Shown piece by piece: positions 5,101 to 45,407 of a DNA stretch of 63,957 bases; the first letter of the stretch is position 1, and each line of letters begins with the position of its first letter. The translations under genes and the position numbers were made by a program. The notes under the pieces are model-generated. The model did no database searches. It worked only from the letters and a program-made list of their open reading frames with translations, and had not been told where the DNA came from. The DNA comes from a virus (taxonomy: Duplodnaviria; Caudoviricetes). Location: positions 1 through 63,957 of IMG/VR virus record IMGVR_UViG_3300028025_006013. The stretch is one strand, 5' to 3'.

Positions 5101-5673
5101 TTAGAGGGTACCGCATCGTATGCAACACAAGCATTGTCAGCATCTTTTGCTTCCACTGCATCATTCGTTAACTCGTTAGTTCAGAAAGTAAACTTAACCG
5201 GTTCACTCCACATCACCTCATCACTAGCACAAACATCGTCATCCATTCAAATCACGTTGCCATCTGGCTCATCCAGACAAGACTACAGTGTGCCTGTAAC
5301 CAAATACAAACAATTCAGTTACTTAACCACAACACGACCAGTATACCAAGATGACTACATTAACTTAGGGTACGATTCATCTGGAAACGATTTTGAAATG
5401 GACATCAACACAGACCCAGCATCTGGTAGAGTTCAGGTACACGCATTCTGCACCACAGCAACATCAGTAACCGCTACATCGGATTTAATAGTGGCTAGTG
5501 TAACCACTGACATTTACCCGAATGGTATAAACACAGATAGCCGATTGGAAATAACAGTGCATGCTGGTTTGGATCCGAATTACCCATTCTACAAAATCAC
5601 CGCATATAGAAGCAATACCACGTATGGTGGAAACATTAGCGTATTGGTAGAGCGATTCTTCCCGAACAATTAA
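2161..5673 (+). CDS. Long tail-fibre-like protein with TASY/SASY and TGS repeats
   Basis: 1170 aa, Ser/Thr/Ala/Gly-rich, 6-9 aa periodic repeats and three longer internal block repeats; structural context. Confidence 0.7.
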   Translation: MAKTLSNNGIVLNQIIYPQQVSQSIDALTGADNYDITISGSFTVTGSTSIDGNVTVDGAITMEGNVVAPNLTDTAQSNVVTYNSINGQFYYTSSNAISPATASNSVSASYAATASYVQNAQTASYVATASWAFNAVTASYVQNAQTASYVLNAVSASYATTASYVANAQTASYVTLAQTASYVNQAVSASYATTASYAVSSSAADSAISASYSTTASFAQNATSASYAASASHADSSNTASYALTASYLEGYISPFPYTGSAQITGSLGVTGSATVNGDLVVNGTASFNVFHTIYNSSSIIYASGSTKFGDTSDDTHQFTGSLYVSGSVTADTFTGTASYATQAATASFVTLAQTASFVTLAQTASYVNQAVSASYAATASFVANAQTASYVTLAQTASYVATASYSNNSLSSSYALTASHVTGIVAAFPYTGSAQITGSLGVTGSVDIYKSGSTVLSVNGSTGALITVTDSISGPLLTVATGSTNILVVDSSLVTTITGSLNVQNGVTASLFGTASWAQNTTTASFVTLAQTASYVLNAVSASFASTASYVNQLNQTVNISGSLNATGSVNIYKSGSSPLVVSGSQGPLFEITDSVSGSLWTIYTGSLPIFDVSSDRTMTLSGSATITGSLTVQNGITGSLFGTASWAQNATTASFVTLAQTASYVLNAVSASFASTASFVNQLNQTVRISGSLFATGSVDIYKSGSTVFAVSGSNGPLFDVTDVVSGSLFTVWTGSTPILQVNSGLTTTITGSLDVQNGITGSLFGTASWAQNAVTASYALSALSSSYAGTASLSDRTLQTDILAINQTGFTIEKGMVVRITGSNTSSDIPRITTASYETDGVSANTLGIATQQITNGSQGFVITEGVLLGIDTTNYISGQLLYLGASGAITGSAPQAPLHTVRLGQVVRQQSNNGSIHVRVDNGYELGELHDTHDTTTTASYGDLLVKSGSLWTNSKQLTGSYGLTGSLTATSFTGSLEGTASYATQALSASFASTASFVNSLVQKVNLTGSLHITSSLAQTSSSIQITLPSGSSRQDYSVPVTKYKQFSYLTTTRPVYQDDYINLGYDSSGNDFEMDINTDPASGRVQVHAFCTTATSVTATSDLIVASVTTDIYPNGINTDSRLEITVHAGLDPNYPFYKITAYRSNTTYGGNISVLVERFFPNN

Positions 5674-5686
5674 ATAAACTAACCGT

Positions 5687-5890
5687 ATGTTATATATAGC
5701 AAACATTCAAAAAACAACCATCAACGCATCCACTCCGAACCAGCGCATATCAAATGCTGAAGTTCATATAGTGGATGCTATTGATCAAACCGAAGCAGAA
5801 TCAAAATTAACCCAACACTATGTGGATTTAAGCACGGTGGATACATCGTACGAAATATCGATATTAAGTTGCAACCAATTAATCAGTTAG
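5687..5890 (+). CDS. Hypothetical protein (possible fibre chaperone)
   Basis: 67-aa ORF between two fibre genes. Confidence 0.55.
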   Translation: MLYIANIQKTTINASTPNQRISNAEVHIVDAIDQTEAESKLTQHYVDLSTVDTSYEISILSCNQLIS

Positions 5891-5905
5891 TAATACAATA
5901 AATTT

Positions 5906-7783
5906 ATGGCAAAAAGATTAGACAAATCAGACATAGCATCGCTCAACACTATCCGCCCATACCATGTATCCCAATCAGTGGATGCATTTACAGGAGAGGT
6001 AGCATATGATATCAATGTATCTGGTTCATTCCAGGTTACGGGATCCACAGTATTGTCGGGCAGCACTTATGTTCGTACATTAACCCAAACCAACCAACCC
6101 AATGTTGTAACCATCAACACAGCAACTGGGCAATTATTCTACACAGCATCAACTGCATTTGGTGCACCATTAGATACTGGTTCATTTTTTAAACAAAATG
6201 GAAACTCATTCGGTGCCACAGCGGTATTAGGTACAAACGACAACTATGCGTTGCGTTTTGAAACAAACTCAACTACCAAAATGCACATTGGTACTGACGG
6301 AAACGTTGGTGTAAACACATTAAATCCTACATCTCATTTACACGTGAGCGGTACATTAGCAAACGGTAGAACAGTATCAGCCGTTGGCTTATTTTCACAC
6401 GCGGAAGGTAGGGAAACACTTGCATATGGTGCCCATTCACATGCCGAAGGTTACCTAACCACATCATCCGGTGATTATTCACACGCAGAAGGTAGAGAAA
6501 CATTTGCATCTGGTGCCTATTCACATGCCGAAGGCATCCAAACCCTATCCAGCGGTGCATATTCACACACCGAAGGTTACCTAACCACAGCATTCGGTGA
6601 TTATTCACACGCGGAAGGCAGGGAAACACTTACACTTGGTGCCGGTTCCCACACTGAAGGTTACCTAACCACAGCATCCGACTTTTATTCACACGCGGAA
6701 GGCAGTAAAACACTTGCATTTGGTATAGGTTCACATGCAGAAGGATCTGGAAGTGCAGCCATGGGTAACTTTTCACACGCAGAAGGTAAAGGAACATACG
6801 CAGAAGGTGTAGTATCACATGCAGAAGGATCAGGAAGTATATCATCCGGTGCCGGTTCCCATTCAGAAGGTTTTTTCACCAGAGCATCCGGTGATTATTC
6901 ACATGCAGAGGGAGTGGAAACCCTATCATCTGGTACAGGTTCCCACTCAGACGGTTATCTAACCACAGCATCCGGTGATTATTCACACGCGGAAGGTAGA
7001 GAAACATTTGCATTCGGTGATTATTCACACGCTGAAGGTTCATCAAGTATAGCGTGGGGATTTGCAGCAAATGCTACTGGAAGAGAAACACTTGCATATG
7101 GTTTGGGTTCCCACACTGAAGGTTACTTAACCACAGCATCCGGTGACTACTCACACACCGAAGGTAAAGAAACATTTGCCTTGGGTACAAATTCACACGC
7201 AGAAGGATCTGGAAGTAGAGCCATAGGTGATTATTCACATGCTGAAGGTTACCTCACTTCAGCTAGTGGGGTATCTTCACACGCGGAAGGCAGGGAAACA
7301 TTTGCACTTGGCGTAGGCTCACATGCAGAAGGATATTTAACCACAGCATCCGGTATTTATTCACACGCGGAAGGCAGGGAAACATTTGCATCTGGTGCAT
7401 ATTCACATGCCGAAGGTATAGAAAGTATAGCATACGGTTATGTATCAAAATCAACAGGTCGAGAGTCCCAAGCCCTCGGAGATTATTCATACGCTGGTGG
7501 TCGTTCCACGGTTGCATCTGGTTCATCGCAATATGTTGTAGGAAAATACAATACCCACAATGACGATACATCATTGTTTATTGTTGGGAATGGTACTTCA
7601 TTAGCAACAAAAGACGCATTCAAAGTAACCCACAGTAGCTCAATTGTTGTACCACCTCGAACATCAGCTCCATCATGGGTAGGCACAGATGGTGAAATGG
7701 TACCAGCAGTTGTAAGTGGCGCCTATTACATATACGTCTATTTCAGTGCAATCCCAGGTTGGAGAAGAACTGCACTTACATAA
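5906..7783 (+). CDS. Tail fibre/adhesin with YadA-head-like 14-aa (SHAEG) repeats
   Basis: More than 20 tandem 14-aa SHAEG repeats; N-terminus homologous to that of 2161..5673 (VSQSxDAxTG..YDI.xSGSF). Confidence 0.75.
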   Translation: MAKRLDKSDIASLNTIRPYHVSQSVDAFTGEVAYDINVSGSFQVTGSTVLSGSTYVRTLTQTNQPNVVTINTATGQLFYTASTAFGAPLDTGSFFKQNGNSFGATAVLGTNDNYALRFETNSTTKMHIGTDGNVGVNTLNPTSHLHVSGTLANGRTVSAVGLFSHAEGRETLAYGAHSHAEGYLTTSSGDYSHAEGRETFASGAYSHAEGIQTLSSGAYSHTEGYLTTAFGDYSHAEGRETLTLGAGSHTEGYLTTASDFYSHAEGSKTLAFGIGSHAEGSGSAAMGNFSHAEGKGTYAEGVVSHAEGSGSISSGAGSHSEGFFTRASGDYSHAEGVETLSSGTGSHSDGYLTTASGDYSHAEGRETFAFGDYSHAEGSSSIAWGFAANATGRETLAYGLGSHTEGYLTTASGDYSHTEGKETFALGTNSHAEGSGSRAIGDYSHAEGYLTSASGVSSHAEGRETFALGVGSHAEGYLTTASGIYSHAEGRETFASGAYSHAEGIESIAYGYVSKSTGRESQALGDYSYAGGRSTVASGSSQYVVGKYNTHNDDTSLFIVGNGTSLATKDAFKVTHSSSIVVPPRTSAPSWVGTDGEMVPAVVSGAYYIYVYFSAIPGWRRTALT

Positions 7784-39900: not shown

Positions 39901-40148
39901 CCTTGGAGGAATTCAACACAAAATGGAAAAAGAACATAGTTCGGCGATTTCCGGGGCTGCAAATCGATGATCCTAGCGTAATTGAATACTGCGATAAGCG
40001 ATTTGAGCAATTGAAACAAACGTACCCTGGCTTCAAATGTTCATCCATACACAATCGGTATGGCATTGTTCGATGCAATTTCTCGAGTGCAGAGGAGGAC
40101 ATTGACTTGGAGATGAGCAACGAAATTAGCAAACTACTAAACGAATGA
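39897..40148 (+). CDS. Hypothetical protein
   Basis: ORF with ATGA overlaps on both sides. Confidence 0.55.
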   Translation: MTLEEFNTKWKKNIVRRFPGLQIDDPSVIEYCDKRFEQLKQTYPGFKCSSIHNRYGIVRCNFSSAEEDIDLEMSNEISKLLNE

Positions 40149-41137: not shown

Positions 41138-41210
41138 GGGGGTATAGCTCAGTTGGTAGAGCACTACACTTGCAATGTAGAAGTCGTGGATTCGAATTCC
41201 TCTACCTCCA
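41138..41210 (+). tRNA. tRNA-Ala(UGC)
   Basis: Cloverleaf GGGGGTA/TACCTCC-A with G3:U70; anticodon loop CT-TGC-AA; TTCGAAT T-loop; CCA not encoded. Confidence 0.93.
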
Positions 41211-41294: not shown

Positions 41295-41753
41295 ATGGAA
41301 ACAAAACATTGCCCTAAATGTGGCGAAACAAAAACAATCGATTTATTTCGCAACAACAAGAAACAACCAGACGGGTTGTATCGAATATGCAAAGCTTGCT
41401 GCAAGGCATACGAACAAAAAGCATACCGCAATAATCCCAAACGATATATCGAAAGGAGTGTAAAACGCATTCAATCCAACCGGGAATGGATAAACCAATA
41501 CAAACAAAATGCATCTTGTACCAGATGCAAAGAAGATAGGTGGTGGATCATTGATTTCCACCATATAAATCCAGCTGAAAAAGAATACACTATCAGTGAC
41601 ATAGCAGGGAGATTTCCATATGATATAATCATGAAAGAAATTGAGAAATGCATAACCCTATGCCGTAATTGTCATTACGAATTTCATCATTTGGAACGCA
41701 CGGAAAATATCAGTTTAGACGAATACTTAAACAACCAACAACATGGAAACTAA
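41295..41753 (+). CDS. Zn-finger HNH endonuclease 1
   Basis: CPKC..CKAC, CTRC, DFHH, LCRNCH motifs. Confidence 0.8.
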   Translation: METKHCPKCGETKTIDLFRNNKKQPDGLYRICKACCKAYEQKAYRNNPKRYIERSVKRIQSNREWINQYKQNASCTRCKEDRWWIIDFHHINPAEKEYTISDIAGRFPYDIIMKEIEKCITLCRNCHYEFHHLERTENISLDEYLNNQQHGN

Positions 41754-42201
41754 AACATGTCCCAAATGCAAGGAAACCAAACAGGTTGAATTGTTTTCCC
41801 GCAATAGACACAAAGAGGATGGCCTGCAACGAACATGTAAACAATGTATCCGAGAAGCCGGTATCAAATCATACAACAAAAACAAAAAATCCTATTTGTC
41901 ACGCGTATCAAAACACAATAAATCTATATTAGACAATGTGAACCAATACAAAGCTAACCAGACATGCCAAAAATGCGGAAACGACAAATACTATTTACTC
42001 GATTTCCACCATATTGACCCATCCATAAAAGATGATAATGTCAACACTATAGCCAGGACTAGAGGAAAGCAAGCACTATCGGACGAAATAGCAAAATGTA
42101 CCATACTATGCAAAAATTGCCACTCCGATTTCCACCACCTCGAACGTACATCCAGTATTACCATATTCGATTATTTACCTAATTTACCTCGAACTGTTTG
42201 A
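41743..42201 (+). CDS. Zn-finger HNH endonuclease 2
   Basis: Tandem paralog of 41295..41753; same length (152 aa) and motifs. Confidence 0.8.
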   Translation: METKTCPKCKETKQVELFSRNRHKEDGLQRTCKQCIREAGIKSYNKNKKSYLSRVSKHNKSILDNVNQYKANQTCQKCGNDKYYLLDFHHIDPSIKDDNVNTIARTRGKQALSDEIAKCTILCKNCHSDFHHLERTSSITIFDYLPNLPRTV

Positions 42202-43567: not shown

Positions 43568-44410
43568 ATGAAAGACATCCGCACACTATACCAACAGTAC
43601 TGCGAATCCCATTCAATCCCATTCAGACACGACAACAAAGTAAATCCATACGATGATACTACATTGTTTTGCCCAGCGGGAATGCAACAATTCAAACCGA
43701 AATTCAAAAACCCAGACAACACAACCATAGCAAACATACAATCGTGTATACGTTTGCAGGACATTGCGGAAATTGGAGACGGTACACATTTGTTGCATTT
43801 CAACATGCTTGGCTTGTTTTCATTCGGTGAAATGAACATGCAACAAGCGGTTGACTTTTGGATGGAATTCATTGAACGTGTACTCGAAATCAAAGTAGAC
43901 ACAATCACCATTCACCCCCACAAACTGGATGAGTGGAGACACATGTACGATGCGTATCCACACCTCAACATCACCACAGACGAGGAATGTATCTGGTCAG
44001 ATGGTGAGATGGGTGGCTACTGTACCGAATTTTATGTAAACGGGGTGGAAATAGGCAACATAGTTAACACGTTAGATCAATTCATAGATGTTGGATTCGG
44101 CATGGAGCGACTTGAGCTCATGGCAAATGGCGAACAAGTAAAGTCAGCGCTGGATACGCTGCGAGAAACAATCGAGCGCATCATCGACTCGGGCTACAAA
44201 CCTGGACCACAAAAGCAAGGGTACATTTTACGCAAATTGCTTCGTGAACTGTATGTACAGGGCGGAGAAATGGAGCACCCATTTTTCACCCAAGAGGTGG
44301 AACGTCAAGCGAAAGCAAAAGCGCGCTATGAGCGATTGGTAGTTAAACATCCAGGTATGCCAAAAGAGTGGTGGTTCGATACACATGGAGTAGATTTAGA
44401 TCTCTTGTAA
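43568..44410 (+). CDS. alaS: Minimal alanyl-tRNA synthetase (aminoacylation and acceptor-recognition domains only)
   Basis: DDTTLFCPAGMQQFK, QSCIR..D..EIG...H..F.MLG.FSFG, EIGNIV, DVGFGMER, G..P....GYILRKLLR and FDTHG match AlaRS signatures; no editing or C-Ala domain. Confidence 0.88.
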   Translation: MKDIRTLYQQYCESHSIPFRHDNKVNPYDDTTLFCPAGMQQFKPKFKNPDNTTIANIQSCIRLQDIAEIGDGTHLLHFNMLGLFSFGEMNMQQAVDFWMEFIERVLEIKVDTITIHPHKLDEWRHMYDAYPHLNITTDEECIWSDGEMGGYCTEFYVNGVEIGNIVNTLDQFIDVGFGMERLELMANGEQVKSALDTLRETIERIIDSGYKPGPQKQGYILRKLLRELYVQGGEMEHPFFTQEVERQAKAKARYERLVVKHPGMPKEWWFDTHGVDLDLL

Positions 44411-44624
44411 AAAAACGTGATTGCCACATATGTATGTCGTATATTGGTTGAAAACGCATTTAAAACATTAGCCCGAAGTACAAGGGAACGTAAGCAGCGC
44501 AAGGCGGTCATTTAGGTGAGTAAAACGAAATTGAGGTATCCTCATTCACCGCACACTCGGCTCCAAAACGTATGTTGGCACAAGTTTGTATGTTTTAGTG
44601 GTGCTCTCAGCAAAACATACACAT

Positions 44625-44696
44625 GCTCCGTTAGTGAAGCGGTTAACACGCTGCCCTTTCACGGCAGAAGCGCGGATTCGAATTCCGCACGGAGTA
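44625..44696 (+). tRNA. tRNA-Glu(UUC)
   Basis: GCTCCGT/ACGGAGT-A acceptor; CTGCC-CTTTCAC-GGCAG anticodon arm; GCGGA-TTCGAAT-TCCGC T-arm. Confidence 0.92.
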
Positions 44697-44700
44697 CAAA

Positions 44701-44935
44701 TAGTTCGTTGATTTATATTGGAAAACATGTAAGACCCAGGTTCGACTCCTGGCACGTCCACCACAAACCGACAATACATCACACATGGGCGTGTACTTGG
44801 ATTTGATTGCATGCGACGTACGGTATATTGAGAATTGTTTAACGCTTTAAACGGCAACCAAAACCATATGAGCATTGCTGCCTAGTAGGTAGTTTTACTC
44901 AAAGCATTTTACCCATTTGGCTTAGTTAAATGGGA
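44701..44935 (+). ncRNA. ssrA: Circularly permuted (two-piece) tmRNA
   Basis: Acceptor piece 44701-44763 (GAC-CCAGG-TTCGACT-CCTGG-CACGTCC-ACCA) precedes the coding piece starting at 44787 (GGGCGTG-TACTTGGATTTGA); G3:U70; tag GNQNHMSIAA* at 44853-44885. Confidence 0.88.
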
Positions 44936-44938
44936 ACT

Positions 44939-45025
44939 GGAAGGGTGGGTGAGTGGTTTAAACCAGAGCACTTGAAATGCTCCGAACTTGAGAAAGTTCC
45001 GCGGGTTCGAAACCCGCCCCTTCCT
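44939..45025 (+). tRNA. tRNA-Ser(UGA)
   Basis: GGAAGGG/CCCTTCC acceptor; GAGCA-CTTGAAA-TGCTC anticodon arm; long variable arm. Confidence 0.92.
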
Positions 45026-45031
45026 CTGAAC

Positions 45032-45245
45032 TATATAGTGTCTCGGTACGCTCTGATGTTATTTATTCATCAACGACGAGGTCCCGGTAGGCAGAACGCG
45101 TCTGATCCTACCCAAATTTATCCCCCCTGTCAATTCCATTTGGCAGGTTTAGATCCTGTGGTCACACCATCAGAACTGCTCACTGGACTTTCTCGTTGCA
45201 TGGGAAAGCAATGCGTCGCTCGAGCAACCATTGTATAACCGGCAC
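45032..45245 (+). ncRNA. Unidentified structured RNA (~210 nt)
   Basis: GC-elevated intergenic region with nested helices, closed by a long-range stem and followed by a terminator. Confidence 0.55.
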
Positions 45246-45248
45246 CGC

Positions 45249-45293
45249 CCCCAACCATACCCACAGACGTGCGGGTTTTTGGTTGGGGTTTTT
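45249..45293 (+). terminator. Terminator of the RNA operon
   Basis: CCCCAACCA...TGGTTGGGG-TTTTT. Confidence 0.8.
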
Positions 45294-45308
45294 AATTTAA
45301 TTCAATTT

Positions 45309-45407
45309 ATGGTATTGCTAATTTATTTCGGGTTTGTTGGTTTAGTGGTGGTGTTAGCCGCGCTAGTGAAAGAACTCATCGAACGAATCAAAAAACGCTT
45401 GTTTTAG
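45309..45407 (+). CDS. Small membrane peptide (32 aa)
   Basis: MVLLIYFGFVGLVVVLAALVKELIERIKKRLF translated by eye. Confidence 0.4.
   Translation: MVLLIYFGFVGLVVVLAALVKELIERIKKRLF

Follow-up and report, generated by a model that had tools for sequence, protein, structure and literature searches.

Two conserved RNA modules, M1 and M3, side by side in the tRNA/tmRNA operon of an uncultured phage

The tRNA cluster of phage T4 contains two small stable RNAs, species 1 and species 2 (rnaC and rnaD), the function of which is unexplained. The current view of phage tRNA arrays is that they serve as weapons against host defenses that target tRNA; the non-tRNA RNAs embedded in them are still unexplained, the T4 species 1 and 2 first among them. 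Theta ribozymes, which are minimal HDV-like ribozymes, lie beside phage tRNAs, and a role in tRNA maturation has been proposed for them (PMC10879173). The phage RNAs GOLLD, ROOL and manA are often found near tRNA genes (PMC12286853, PMC2864571), and GOLLD and ROOL are reported to form homo-oligomers. Finally, a catalogue derived from IMG/VR contains 8,495 candidate structured RNAs (PMC10690425).

The locus described here lies in a linear viral contig of 63,957 bases (CheckV completeness, 37%), the whole of which was analyzed and is referred to as the window; related contigs are designated by L numbers. Its non-coding block at 45032-45245 comprises the modules M1 and M3, which, together with a third, M2, of related phages, are independent conserved RNA modules. 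M1 and M3 are new relative to Rfam, and M1 is widespread in uncultured phages, where it adjoins tRNA genes. Literature searches and passages of PMC10879173 and PMC10690425 yielded no account of M1, M2, M3 or a motif resembling hairpin X, although the supplementary candidate lists may include them; in particular, M1, which is present in dozens of IMG/VR contigs, may be one of the unnamed 'DNAVirus_X' candidates of the IMG/VR catalogue (PMC10690425).

The operon and its non-coding block

The block lies on the plus strand between tRNA-Ser(UGA) (44939-45026, +; found by ARAGORN, and by the Rfam tRNA model at 54.5 bits) and a strong intrinsic terminator that ends the operon (45249-45293, +; stem 45249-45288, U run 45289-45293; -24.6 kcal/mol, z -3.36), as the original prediction had it; this terminator is kept in the relatives L002, L003 and L516. 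The G+C content is indeed elevated, being 0.48-0.505 over 44900-45299 versus mostly 0.33-0.44 in the flanks, and the block was rightly called non-coding, since it has no credible ORF and the sole long frame (44930-45238) passes through the tRNA. It had also not been matched to RNase P, SRP, 6S or hammerhead cores, and in a cmscan of 44400-45400 against Rfam 15, both at the gathering thresholds and at E<=10, it fell into no family, among them manA, GOLLD, ROOL, 6S, SRP, RNase P and the self-cleaving ribozymes. The scan picked up the tRNAs, the tmRNA and chance matches elsewhere; the sole overlap with the block was a chance match of sX4 (15.8 bits, E 1.1), located mainly on tRNA-Ser and ending at 45051. 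Six related loci scanned at E<=0.1 gave nothing on M1, M2 or M3, and BLAST against 50,697 phage records matched the tRNA-Glu part and nothing else.

Upstream of tRNA-Ser are tRNA-Glu (44625-44697, +) and a permuted, two-piece tmRNA (about 44711-44888, +; RF04321, 64.2 bits). The tmRNA tag, GNQNHMSIAA, sits in the 3' tail beyond the closing helices, the RF04321 match closing before it. The tmRNA gene is kept in L003 and missing from L002 and L516, where tRNA-Glu stands directly before tRNA-Ser and both M1 and M3 are retained. The block is thus independent of the tmRNA, and the possibility that it forms the 3' domain of the two-piece tmRNA was ruled out.

Further upstream, an ORF of 280 amino acids (43568-44410, +) resembles the N-terminal part of alanyl-tRNA synthetase (AlaRS), its match to the profile of the class II AlaRS catalytic domain (PF01411, E 1.6e-22) being confined to profile positions 2-139. 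A search of viral contigs with this protein retrieved nine relatives (64-95% identity); two of these nine loci, L002 (95% protein identity) and L003 (93%), hold the block. The ORF could encode a truncated synthetase-like protein; a tRNA-Ala is found at 41138. Adjoining this tRNA-Ala are two tandem paralogous Cys-rich ORFs of 152 amino acids (41295-41753 and 41743-42201, +), and a similar ORF in L003 (about 5500-5900) is inserted between tRNA-Ser and M1. These ORFs look HNH-like by eye, with only weak zinc-finger matches in Pfam, and may encode homing endonucleases that reshuffle the array. A Bacteroidota host was considered from promoter-like TAnnTTTG motifs seen by eye in related loci, and was set aside; Pfam gave it no support, and the 311-residue ORF at 40145 had no match.

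Between the AlaRS-like ORF and tRNA-Glu there is also a non-coding leader (44454-44582, +) that is conserved in L002, L003 and L516; in contigs of three RNA libraries, no other part of the locus is covered as well (depth up to 105). It starts with a small hairpin, CCC-GAAGUACAA-GGG, and the same hairpin opens the RNAs of L568, L584 and L664 that carry hairpin X, an element described below; the leader has no Rfam match, and its folding z-score is +1.07.

Assembled contigs of four metatranscriptome runs, which show no ends, strand or transcription as such, may contain DNA and are uninformative for uncovered parts such as 45231-45400, include one that spans the tmRNA tag, tRNA-Ser and M1, and another of 176 nt that bridges the direct M1-M3 junction (45071-45230; nine differences, one gap); the M1 of other phages is present in RNA-library contigs at a depth of 21-38. 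The original prediction of a functional non-coding RNA in an operon of translation RNAs is therefore reasonable, the block being conserved, structured, non-coding, co-oriented with the tRNA/tmRNA genes and represented in such contigs; that it is a single RNA is not supported.

The junction between M1 and M3 (45117-45121, +) is an insertion point: L002, L003 and L557 have about 125 nt here, consisting of tRNA-Thr(UGU) and the hairpin M2, L173 has M2 alone with no tRNA, and L516 has the direct junction, as in the window. L557 is more diverged in the second half of the block. By profile search, M3 was found in only five of the M1 loci (L002, L003, L516, L557, L173), and also in six loci without M1 (L643, L583, L606, L621, L625, L609; E about 1e-11). 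In complete phage records the two are found apart: a 173-kb record (100% complete) has one M1 and lacks the core pattern of M3's hairpin X, which is absent from five M1 records, and a 128.8-kb record (100% complete) has M3 and no M1. These separate distributions, together with the inserted tRNA, make the block two modules, M1 plus M3, and not one RNA.

The original reading was of one multi-helix RNA of ~210 nt, with its two ends paired to each other and with helices and pseudoknots in between. In its favor, the minimum free energy (MFE) structure of the whole block does use long-range pairs (z -3.47), the window, L002 and L516 retain the complete TATATAGTG/CATTGTATA closure, and, as described, an RNA-library contig bridges the junction. 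The z-score, however, owes much to the terminator, and the same MFE structure gives up helices P1 and P2 of M1 arm A, which belong to the family consensus. Moreover, the four nested long-range pairings of the original model showed no compensatory change in the six loci that have both halves, and degrade in L002, L003, L557 and L173; the two pseudoknot pairings fared no better, with no compensatory change in the six loci and pairs lost in relatives. Two of the strands involved, CTCGG and TCTGATG, already form part of helices P1 and P2 within M1. No pair of the outer 9-bp helix is lost in the window, L002 or L516, but seven remain in L557, seven in L003 and three in L173. In four of the six loci, the 5' flank of M1 can pair with the tail of M3 over 7-9 bp, and some interaction may take place in the window's clade. 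With a tRNA gene splitting the halves in three relatives and no covariation in the closing helices, the single-RNA model is largely refuted, and we give it hardly any credence.

M1: fold, apical loop and genomic context

M1 (45034-45120, +) is an RNA module of ~80 nt with two arms, and is the single match of its covariance model, R1, in the whole window (92.5 bits, E 3e-21). Arm A consists, in this order, of P1 (45038-45045/45077-45085), a 3x1 internal loop, the 2-bp P1b (45049-45050/45074-45075), a second 3x1 loop, and the P2 hairpin (45054-45058/45068-45072), which is of variable length and often has a GAAA loop. Arm B follows directly, and consists of P3 (45086-45091/45107-45112), a 2-nt bulge and P3b (45092-45095/45101-45104), all on the plus strand. 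The RNAalifold consensus of the family and the MFE structure of M1 alone are the same fold.

Homologs were collected by exact scans, which retrieved 74 stretches of viral contigs with a 16-base M1 core and at least 119 metagenome loci with a 17-base pattern from the other core. Among the loci listed, the M1 profile found full-length matches in 42 of 72 from the viral scan and 93 of 119 from the metagenome scan. The family numbers over 130 loci and, with the window, 82 distinct sequences. About 36 nt of M1 form a near-invariant core; it is to be noted that part of this invariance is by construction, since the two sets were fetched by exact patterns in the two conserved cores. In a cross-check of each core in the set fetched with the other, the viral set kept the 5' core except in L147 and L183, and the metagenome set had scattered single changes in the 3' core. 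P3 is followed by an unpaired CAAA tail (45113-45116, +), in which, over the 82 sequences, the C does not vary and the first A is conserved to at least 90%; sequence 3' of this tail showed no conservation in the M1 alignment.

In the same alignment, 98.7% of the cells are standard pairs, and 12 of the 24 pairs have changed on both sides. None of 500 shuffles reached any of five covariation measures, and shifting the partners cut the pairing to 31-47%. Support is concentrated in arm B, where nine of the ten P3/P3b pairs have changed on both sides, with further support at the base of P2; P1 and P1b are invariant, and covariation thus neither supports nor contradicts them. Collecting homologs and checking them for covariation, as had been suggested at the outset, thus gave strong covariation in one arm, and the hairpin GGTAGG-CAGA..TCTG-AT-CCTACC that had been picked out from the window alone turned out to be P3/P3b. 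Neither M1 (z -0.87) nor M3 (z -1.16), taken alone, folds better than shuffled sequence; with such unremarkable z-scores, the evidence for structure is comparative and not thermodynamic.

The tip of P3b is a self-complementary hexamer, ACGCGU in the window (45096-45101, +). In the 82-sequence alignment, a perfect palindromic hexamer occurs in 74 sequences and in five different versions; the other six loop variants are non-palindromic and found in 1-3 sequences each. Columns 90/93 are CG in 49 sequences and GC in 31, and the adjacent columns 91/92 are GC in 69, UA in five and AU in one. Since the adjacent bases 91 and 92 cannot pair inside one hairpin, loop-loop pairing of two M1 copies is the simplest reading at the RNA level. 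Retroviral dimerization sites are likewise kissing-loop hairpins with a self-complementary apical loop, and the M1 loop behaves as would be expected of such a homodimer, in that its six nucleotides vary by lineage and yet stay self-complementary through the change. It differs in that the loop is 5-7 nt, the end bases of which may belong to the stem, and that the putative dimer is deduced from sequence. M1 would thus dimerize loop to loop between two copies, the alternative being a double-stranded DNA site.

This alternative belongs to a broader one, in which the elements would influence transcription, by put/nut-like antitermination or by attenuation, or would function as DNA (a palindromic protein site, a target of homing endonucleases or a recombination joint). 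The hexamer is palindromic as DNA too, the operon is untranslated and M3 precedes a terminator, HNH-like ORFs occur in or beside the arrays, one of them just before M1 in L003, and the modules are shuffled between phages. Against it, compensatory changes keep the RNA helices, and orientation is strictly that of the tRNAs: all 719 predicted tRNAs in 98 distinct M1 contexts share the strand of M1. M1 also has no fixed place in the arrays and may even directly precede the last tRNA or a terminator, and read-through seems unneeded in L643, where a promoter-like motif was seen by eye after the M3 terminator. Overall, we consider a transcription or DNA-level role highly improbable.

In 61 of the 98 contexts, the next tRNA lies 4-7 nt downstream of P3, and in 45 of these 61 it is a tRNA-Gly (UCC 34, GCC 9, ACC 2). 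An upstream tRNA ends within 15 nt of M1 (2-14 nt) in 21 of the 98; in the window this gap is about 12 nt. Model R1 found one M1 copy in each of three whole records (97, 173 and 207 kb); two further records, brought in by chance or through the AlaRS-like gene, gave no match. Among the 120 stretches of prokaryotic genome contigs listed by the 3' core scan there was no full-length M1 and one partial match of 27 nt. Single copy, strand and spacing together indicate that M1 behaves as a single-copy gene in a tRNA-like slot, usually as the 5' neighbor of tRNA-Gly. M1 lacks an adjacent tRNA in the window, L173, L194 and L197, and in the last two a terminator-like hairpin with a T run lies directly 3' of it. 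The window arrangement, in which no tRNA follows M1, is therefore the unusual one, and is explained most simply by deletion of tRNA-Thr and M2. As a separate observation, a T-arm-like sequence followed by a T run lies just upstream of M1 in L196 (about 7200-7258, +), as well as in L182 and L195; it is about 250 nt past the last predicted tRNA, and may be another non-tRNA RNA of the array.

Such constant, tight spacing to the downstream tRNA would also suit a small self-cleaving ribozyme, making a tRNA end without a protein enzyme in the style of the HDV-like theta ribozymes, and there is precedent for this in phages (PMC10879173). The near-invariant unpaired nucleotides and the invariant C directly after the second hairpin point the same way. 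Nevertheless, no Rfam ribozyme family matched at E<=10, and the upstream tRNA is 2-14 nt away in only the 21 contexts mentioned; M1 thus does not have the placement of a theta ribozyme, which cuts no more than 5 nt to either side of a tRNA 3' end. An HDV-type fold needs a conserved L3/P1.1 and a P2 with its 3' strand after J4/2, whereas the would-be L3 loop of M1 is hypervariable in length and sequence, its 3' flank is unconserved, and the features of the nested double pseudoknot are missing. A hammerhead has CUGANGA and GAAA as unpaired core strands around three stems; it was rejected since the UGA of CUCUGA and a UCA together make up the base of P2, with an innermost pair (23-46) that covaries, so that this CUGA-like stretch is base-paired and forms no core. 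Compared by eye with their general patterns, M1 fits none of the HDV-like, hammerhead and hairpin ribozymes, group II domain V, K-turn, SRP, RNase P P4 and tRNA cloverleaf. A ribozyme thus appears very unlikely.

M3, M2 and the hairpin-X loop

M3 (45122-45245, +; to 45293 with the terminator) was delineated by profile matches, folds and pair counts, and consists of three hairpins and a tail: H1 (45126-45133/45140-45147), H2 (45154-45164/45177-45187), H3 (45188-45196/45200-45208) and the tail (45209-45245), which is less conserved and leads into the terminator. H1, which had been foreseen as the hairpin CCTGTCAA..TTGGCAGG, is 100% paired in ten sequences, with three of its eight pairs changed on both sides. 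The outer helix of H2 differs between clades in sequence and even in register; it has one compensatory change from G-C to A-U, and one U.U mismatch that is U-A in L557 and A-U in L003. The hairpin CTTTCTC..GGGAAAG is H3, and this part of the original prediction held in part: it does fold in the window's clade, but comparative support for it is weak.

The apical loop of H2, termed hairpin X (45165-45183, +), is conserved; it has a 12-nt loop with ACCAUCAGAAC, followed by UGCUCAC. Its ACCAU.AGAAC core and eight more columns are invariant in the ten M3 sequences. When the 11-base motif is held unpaired, all ten fold as H1 plus H2, which is the unconstrained optimum for five of them. Two M3-derived patterns, ACCATCAGAACTGC and TGCATGGGAAAGCA, fetched mostly chance matches; M1 was present in two of 121 loci with the former, both of them contigs already known, and in none of 119 with the latter. 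Away from M1, M3 lies between two terminators in L625 and behind tRNA-Asn in L643.

M2 presents the hairpin-X loop on a different outer helix, and so do intergenic RNAs, otherwise unrelated, from further viral contigs; none of these gave a match in Rfam. M2 is a double hairpin of roughly 50 nt immediately behind a tRNA, and its 12-nt loop, ACCCAU..GAAC, resembles that of M3 H2. Copies were located in L002 (3687-3745), L003 (6068-6126), L557 (about 6689-6640, -), L173 (5871-5810, -) and L146 (6885-6821, -), and M2 lies 1.2-2.7 kb downstream of M1 in L146, L158 and L178. Elsewhere, some hairpin-X copies are directly behind tRNAs and some between ORFs (L568, L596); L002, L557 and L173 have two copies in tandem. 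Complementarity of the hairpin-X loop to segments of M1 is not conserved. This recurrence suggests, from sequence comparison, that hairpin X may be a reusable recognition element.

Several other elements of these loci were noted. The terminators behind distant copies of M3 have the loop CUGAUCAAGAAUUAC in common and differ in their stems (L173, about 5690-5640, -; L643, 4290-4342, +; and four loci alike L625), and conservation of a terminator loop in this way is unusual. The L173 array also contains a 120-nt tRNA match (6106-6225, -; 44.6 bits), probably an intron-containing tRNA, and L568 has a group I intron (6011-6342, -; 91 bits).

The recurrence of hairpin X bears on the main rival explanation, namely that both modules are cis-acting punctuation of the operon and not RNAs in their own right. 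As structured signals, they would be read by an RNase or RNA-binding protein, from the host or the phage, that cuts or protects the neighboring tRNAs and messages or sets the order in which these mature. The short distance of 4-7 nt from M1 to the next tRNA, mostly tRNA-Gly, in 61 of the 98 contexts speaks for it, as do the tandem hairpin-X copies and the M2 and hairpin-X copies that start a few nucleotides after tRNAs (M2 in L002, L003, L557 and L146, and hairpin X in L584) or lie between ORFs. Indeed, with hairpin X between the protein genes of L568 and L596, a cis-acting signal fits at least as well as a trans-acting RNA. M1, on the other hand, is single-copy per record despite arrays of up to 21 tRNAs, where a general signal would be expected at many; it also occurs with no adjacent tRNA in the window, L173, L194 and L197, and its near-invariant core of ~36 nt exceeds the needs of the RNase sites known to us. 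We regard cis-acting punctuation as a possible though tentative explanation, and the ribozyme, transcription-element and DNA-level roles as less likely than it.

Proposed roles and comparison with known systems

The reading that we favor, with some confidence, is that the block consists of two independent phage RNA genes or modules, placed side by side in a tRNA/tmRNA operon and processed and acting as outlined here; M1 and M3 are most likely separate small RNAs that would be released by tRNA processing. The modularity, conservation, helices, single copy, strand and spacing are observed, and the processing, stability, dimerization, trans action and any target or partner are inferred. M1 would fill a 'tRNA slot', its ends being made by the enzymes that mature its neighbors: on the 3' side, RNase P acting at the tRNA that normally lies 4-7 nt downstream, and on the 5' side, the 3'-end processing of the upstream tRNA. 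Its release would yield a stable RNA of ~80 nt with two side-by-side arms, in which the invariant internal loops and linker may form a specific binding surface, and the palindromic apical loop would let two copies pair loop to loop. M3 would be an RNA of its own, about 125-175 nt long and extending as far as the terminator, with its function probably residing in the invariant 12-nt loop of H2, a presumed recognition element reused by other phage RNAs. In the window phage and in L516, deletion of tRNA-Thr and M2 would have joined M1 to M3.

A more ambitious version is conceivable, although we hold it to be doubtful. Here, M1 would represent a new functional class of two-arm, self-dimerizing RNA of ~80 nt with a near-invariant core, which either catalyzes or directs maturation of the next tRNA (mostly tRNA-Gly) or binds a conserved host component of translation or RNA processing; a phage RNA-processing system would use hairpin X as its recognition tag, and the two together would constitute an RNA-level 'punctuation code' for phage tRNA operons.

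Whichever of these applies, M1 is compact and easily synthesized, and has a clear secondary structure, a probable dimerization loop and a preferred partner tRNA, which make the role of such RNAs testable. Long 'multi-helix' spacers in operons of this kind should be read as strings of shuffled modules and not as single large RNAs.

Among known systems, species 1 and 2 of T4 resemble M1 and M3 in being non-tRNA RNAs of a phage tRNA operon, encoded on the tRNA strand and presumably released by tRNA enzymes. M1 is encoded in the same manner, i.e., it lies within tRNA arrays, is non-coding and is not a tRNA, and all 719 of the 719 tRNAs around it are co-oriented. The differences are that M1 and M3 come from uncultured phages, and that M1 has a palindromic loop and prefers the position before tRNA-Gly. 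The comparison is one of description; we presume no relation in sequence or structure between the T4 RNAs and M1 or M3. GOLLD, ROOL and manA are, like M1 and M3, structured phage non-coding RNAs of unknown function tied to tRNA genes, but M1 and M3 are far smaller and gave no match to their Rfam models, whether in the window (E<=10) or in six relatives (E<=0.1). Theta ribozymes share with M1 that they are small conserved RNAs adjoining tRNA genes of uncultured phages, but they cleave within +/-5 nt of the tRNA 3' end and have an HDV-like double pseudoknot (PMC10879173), whereas M1 is usually 5' of the tRNA, has neither the conserved L3 nor the P2, and gives no HDV-type match in Rfam. Overall, the small RNAs of the T4 tRNA cluster are the closest known relatives in kind, and the theta ribozymes are close by context only.
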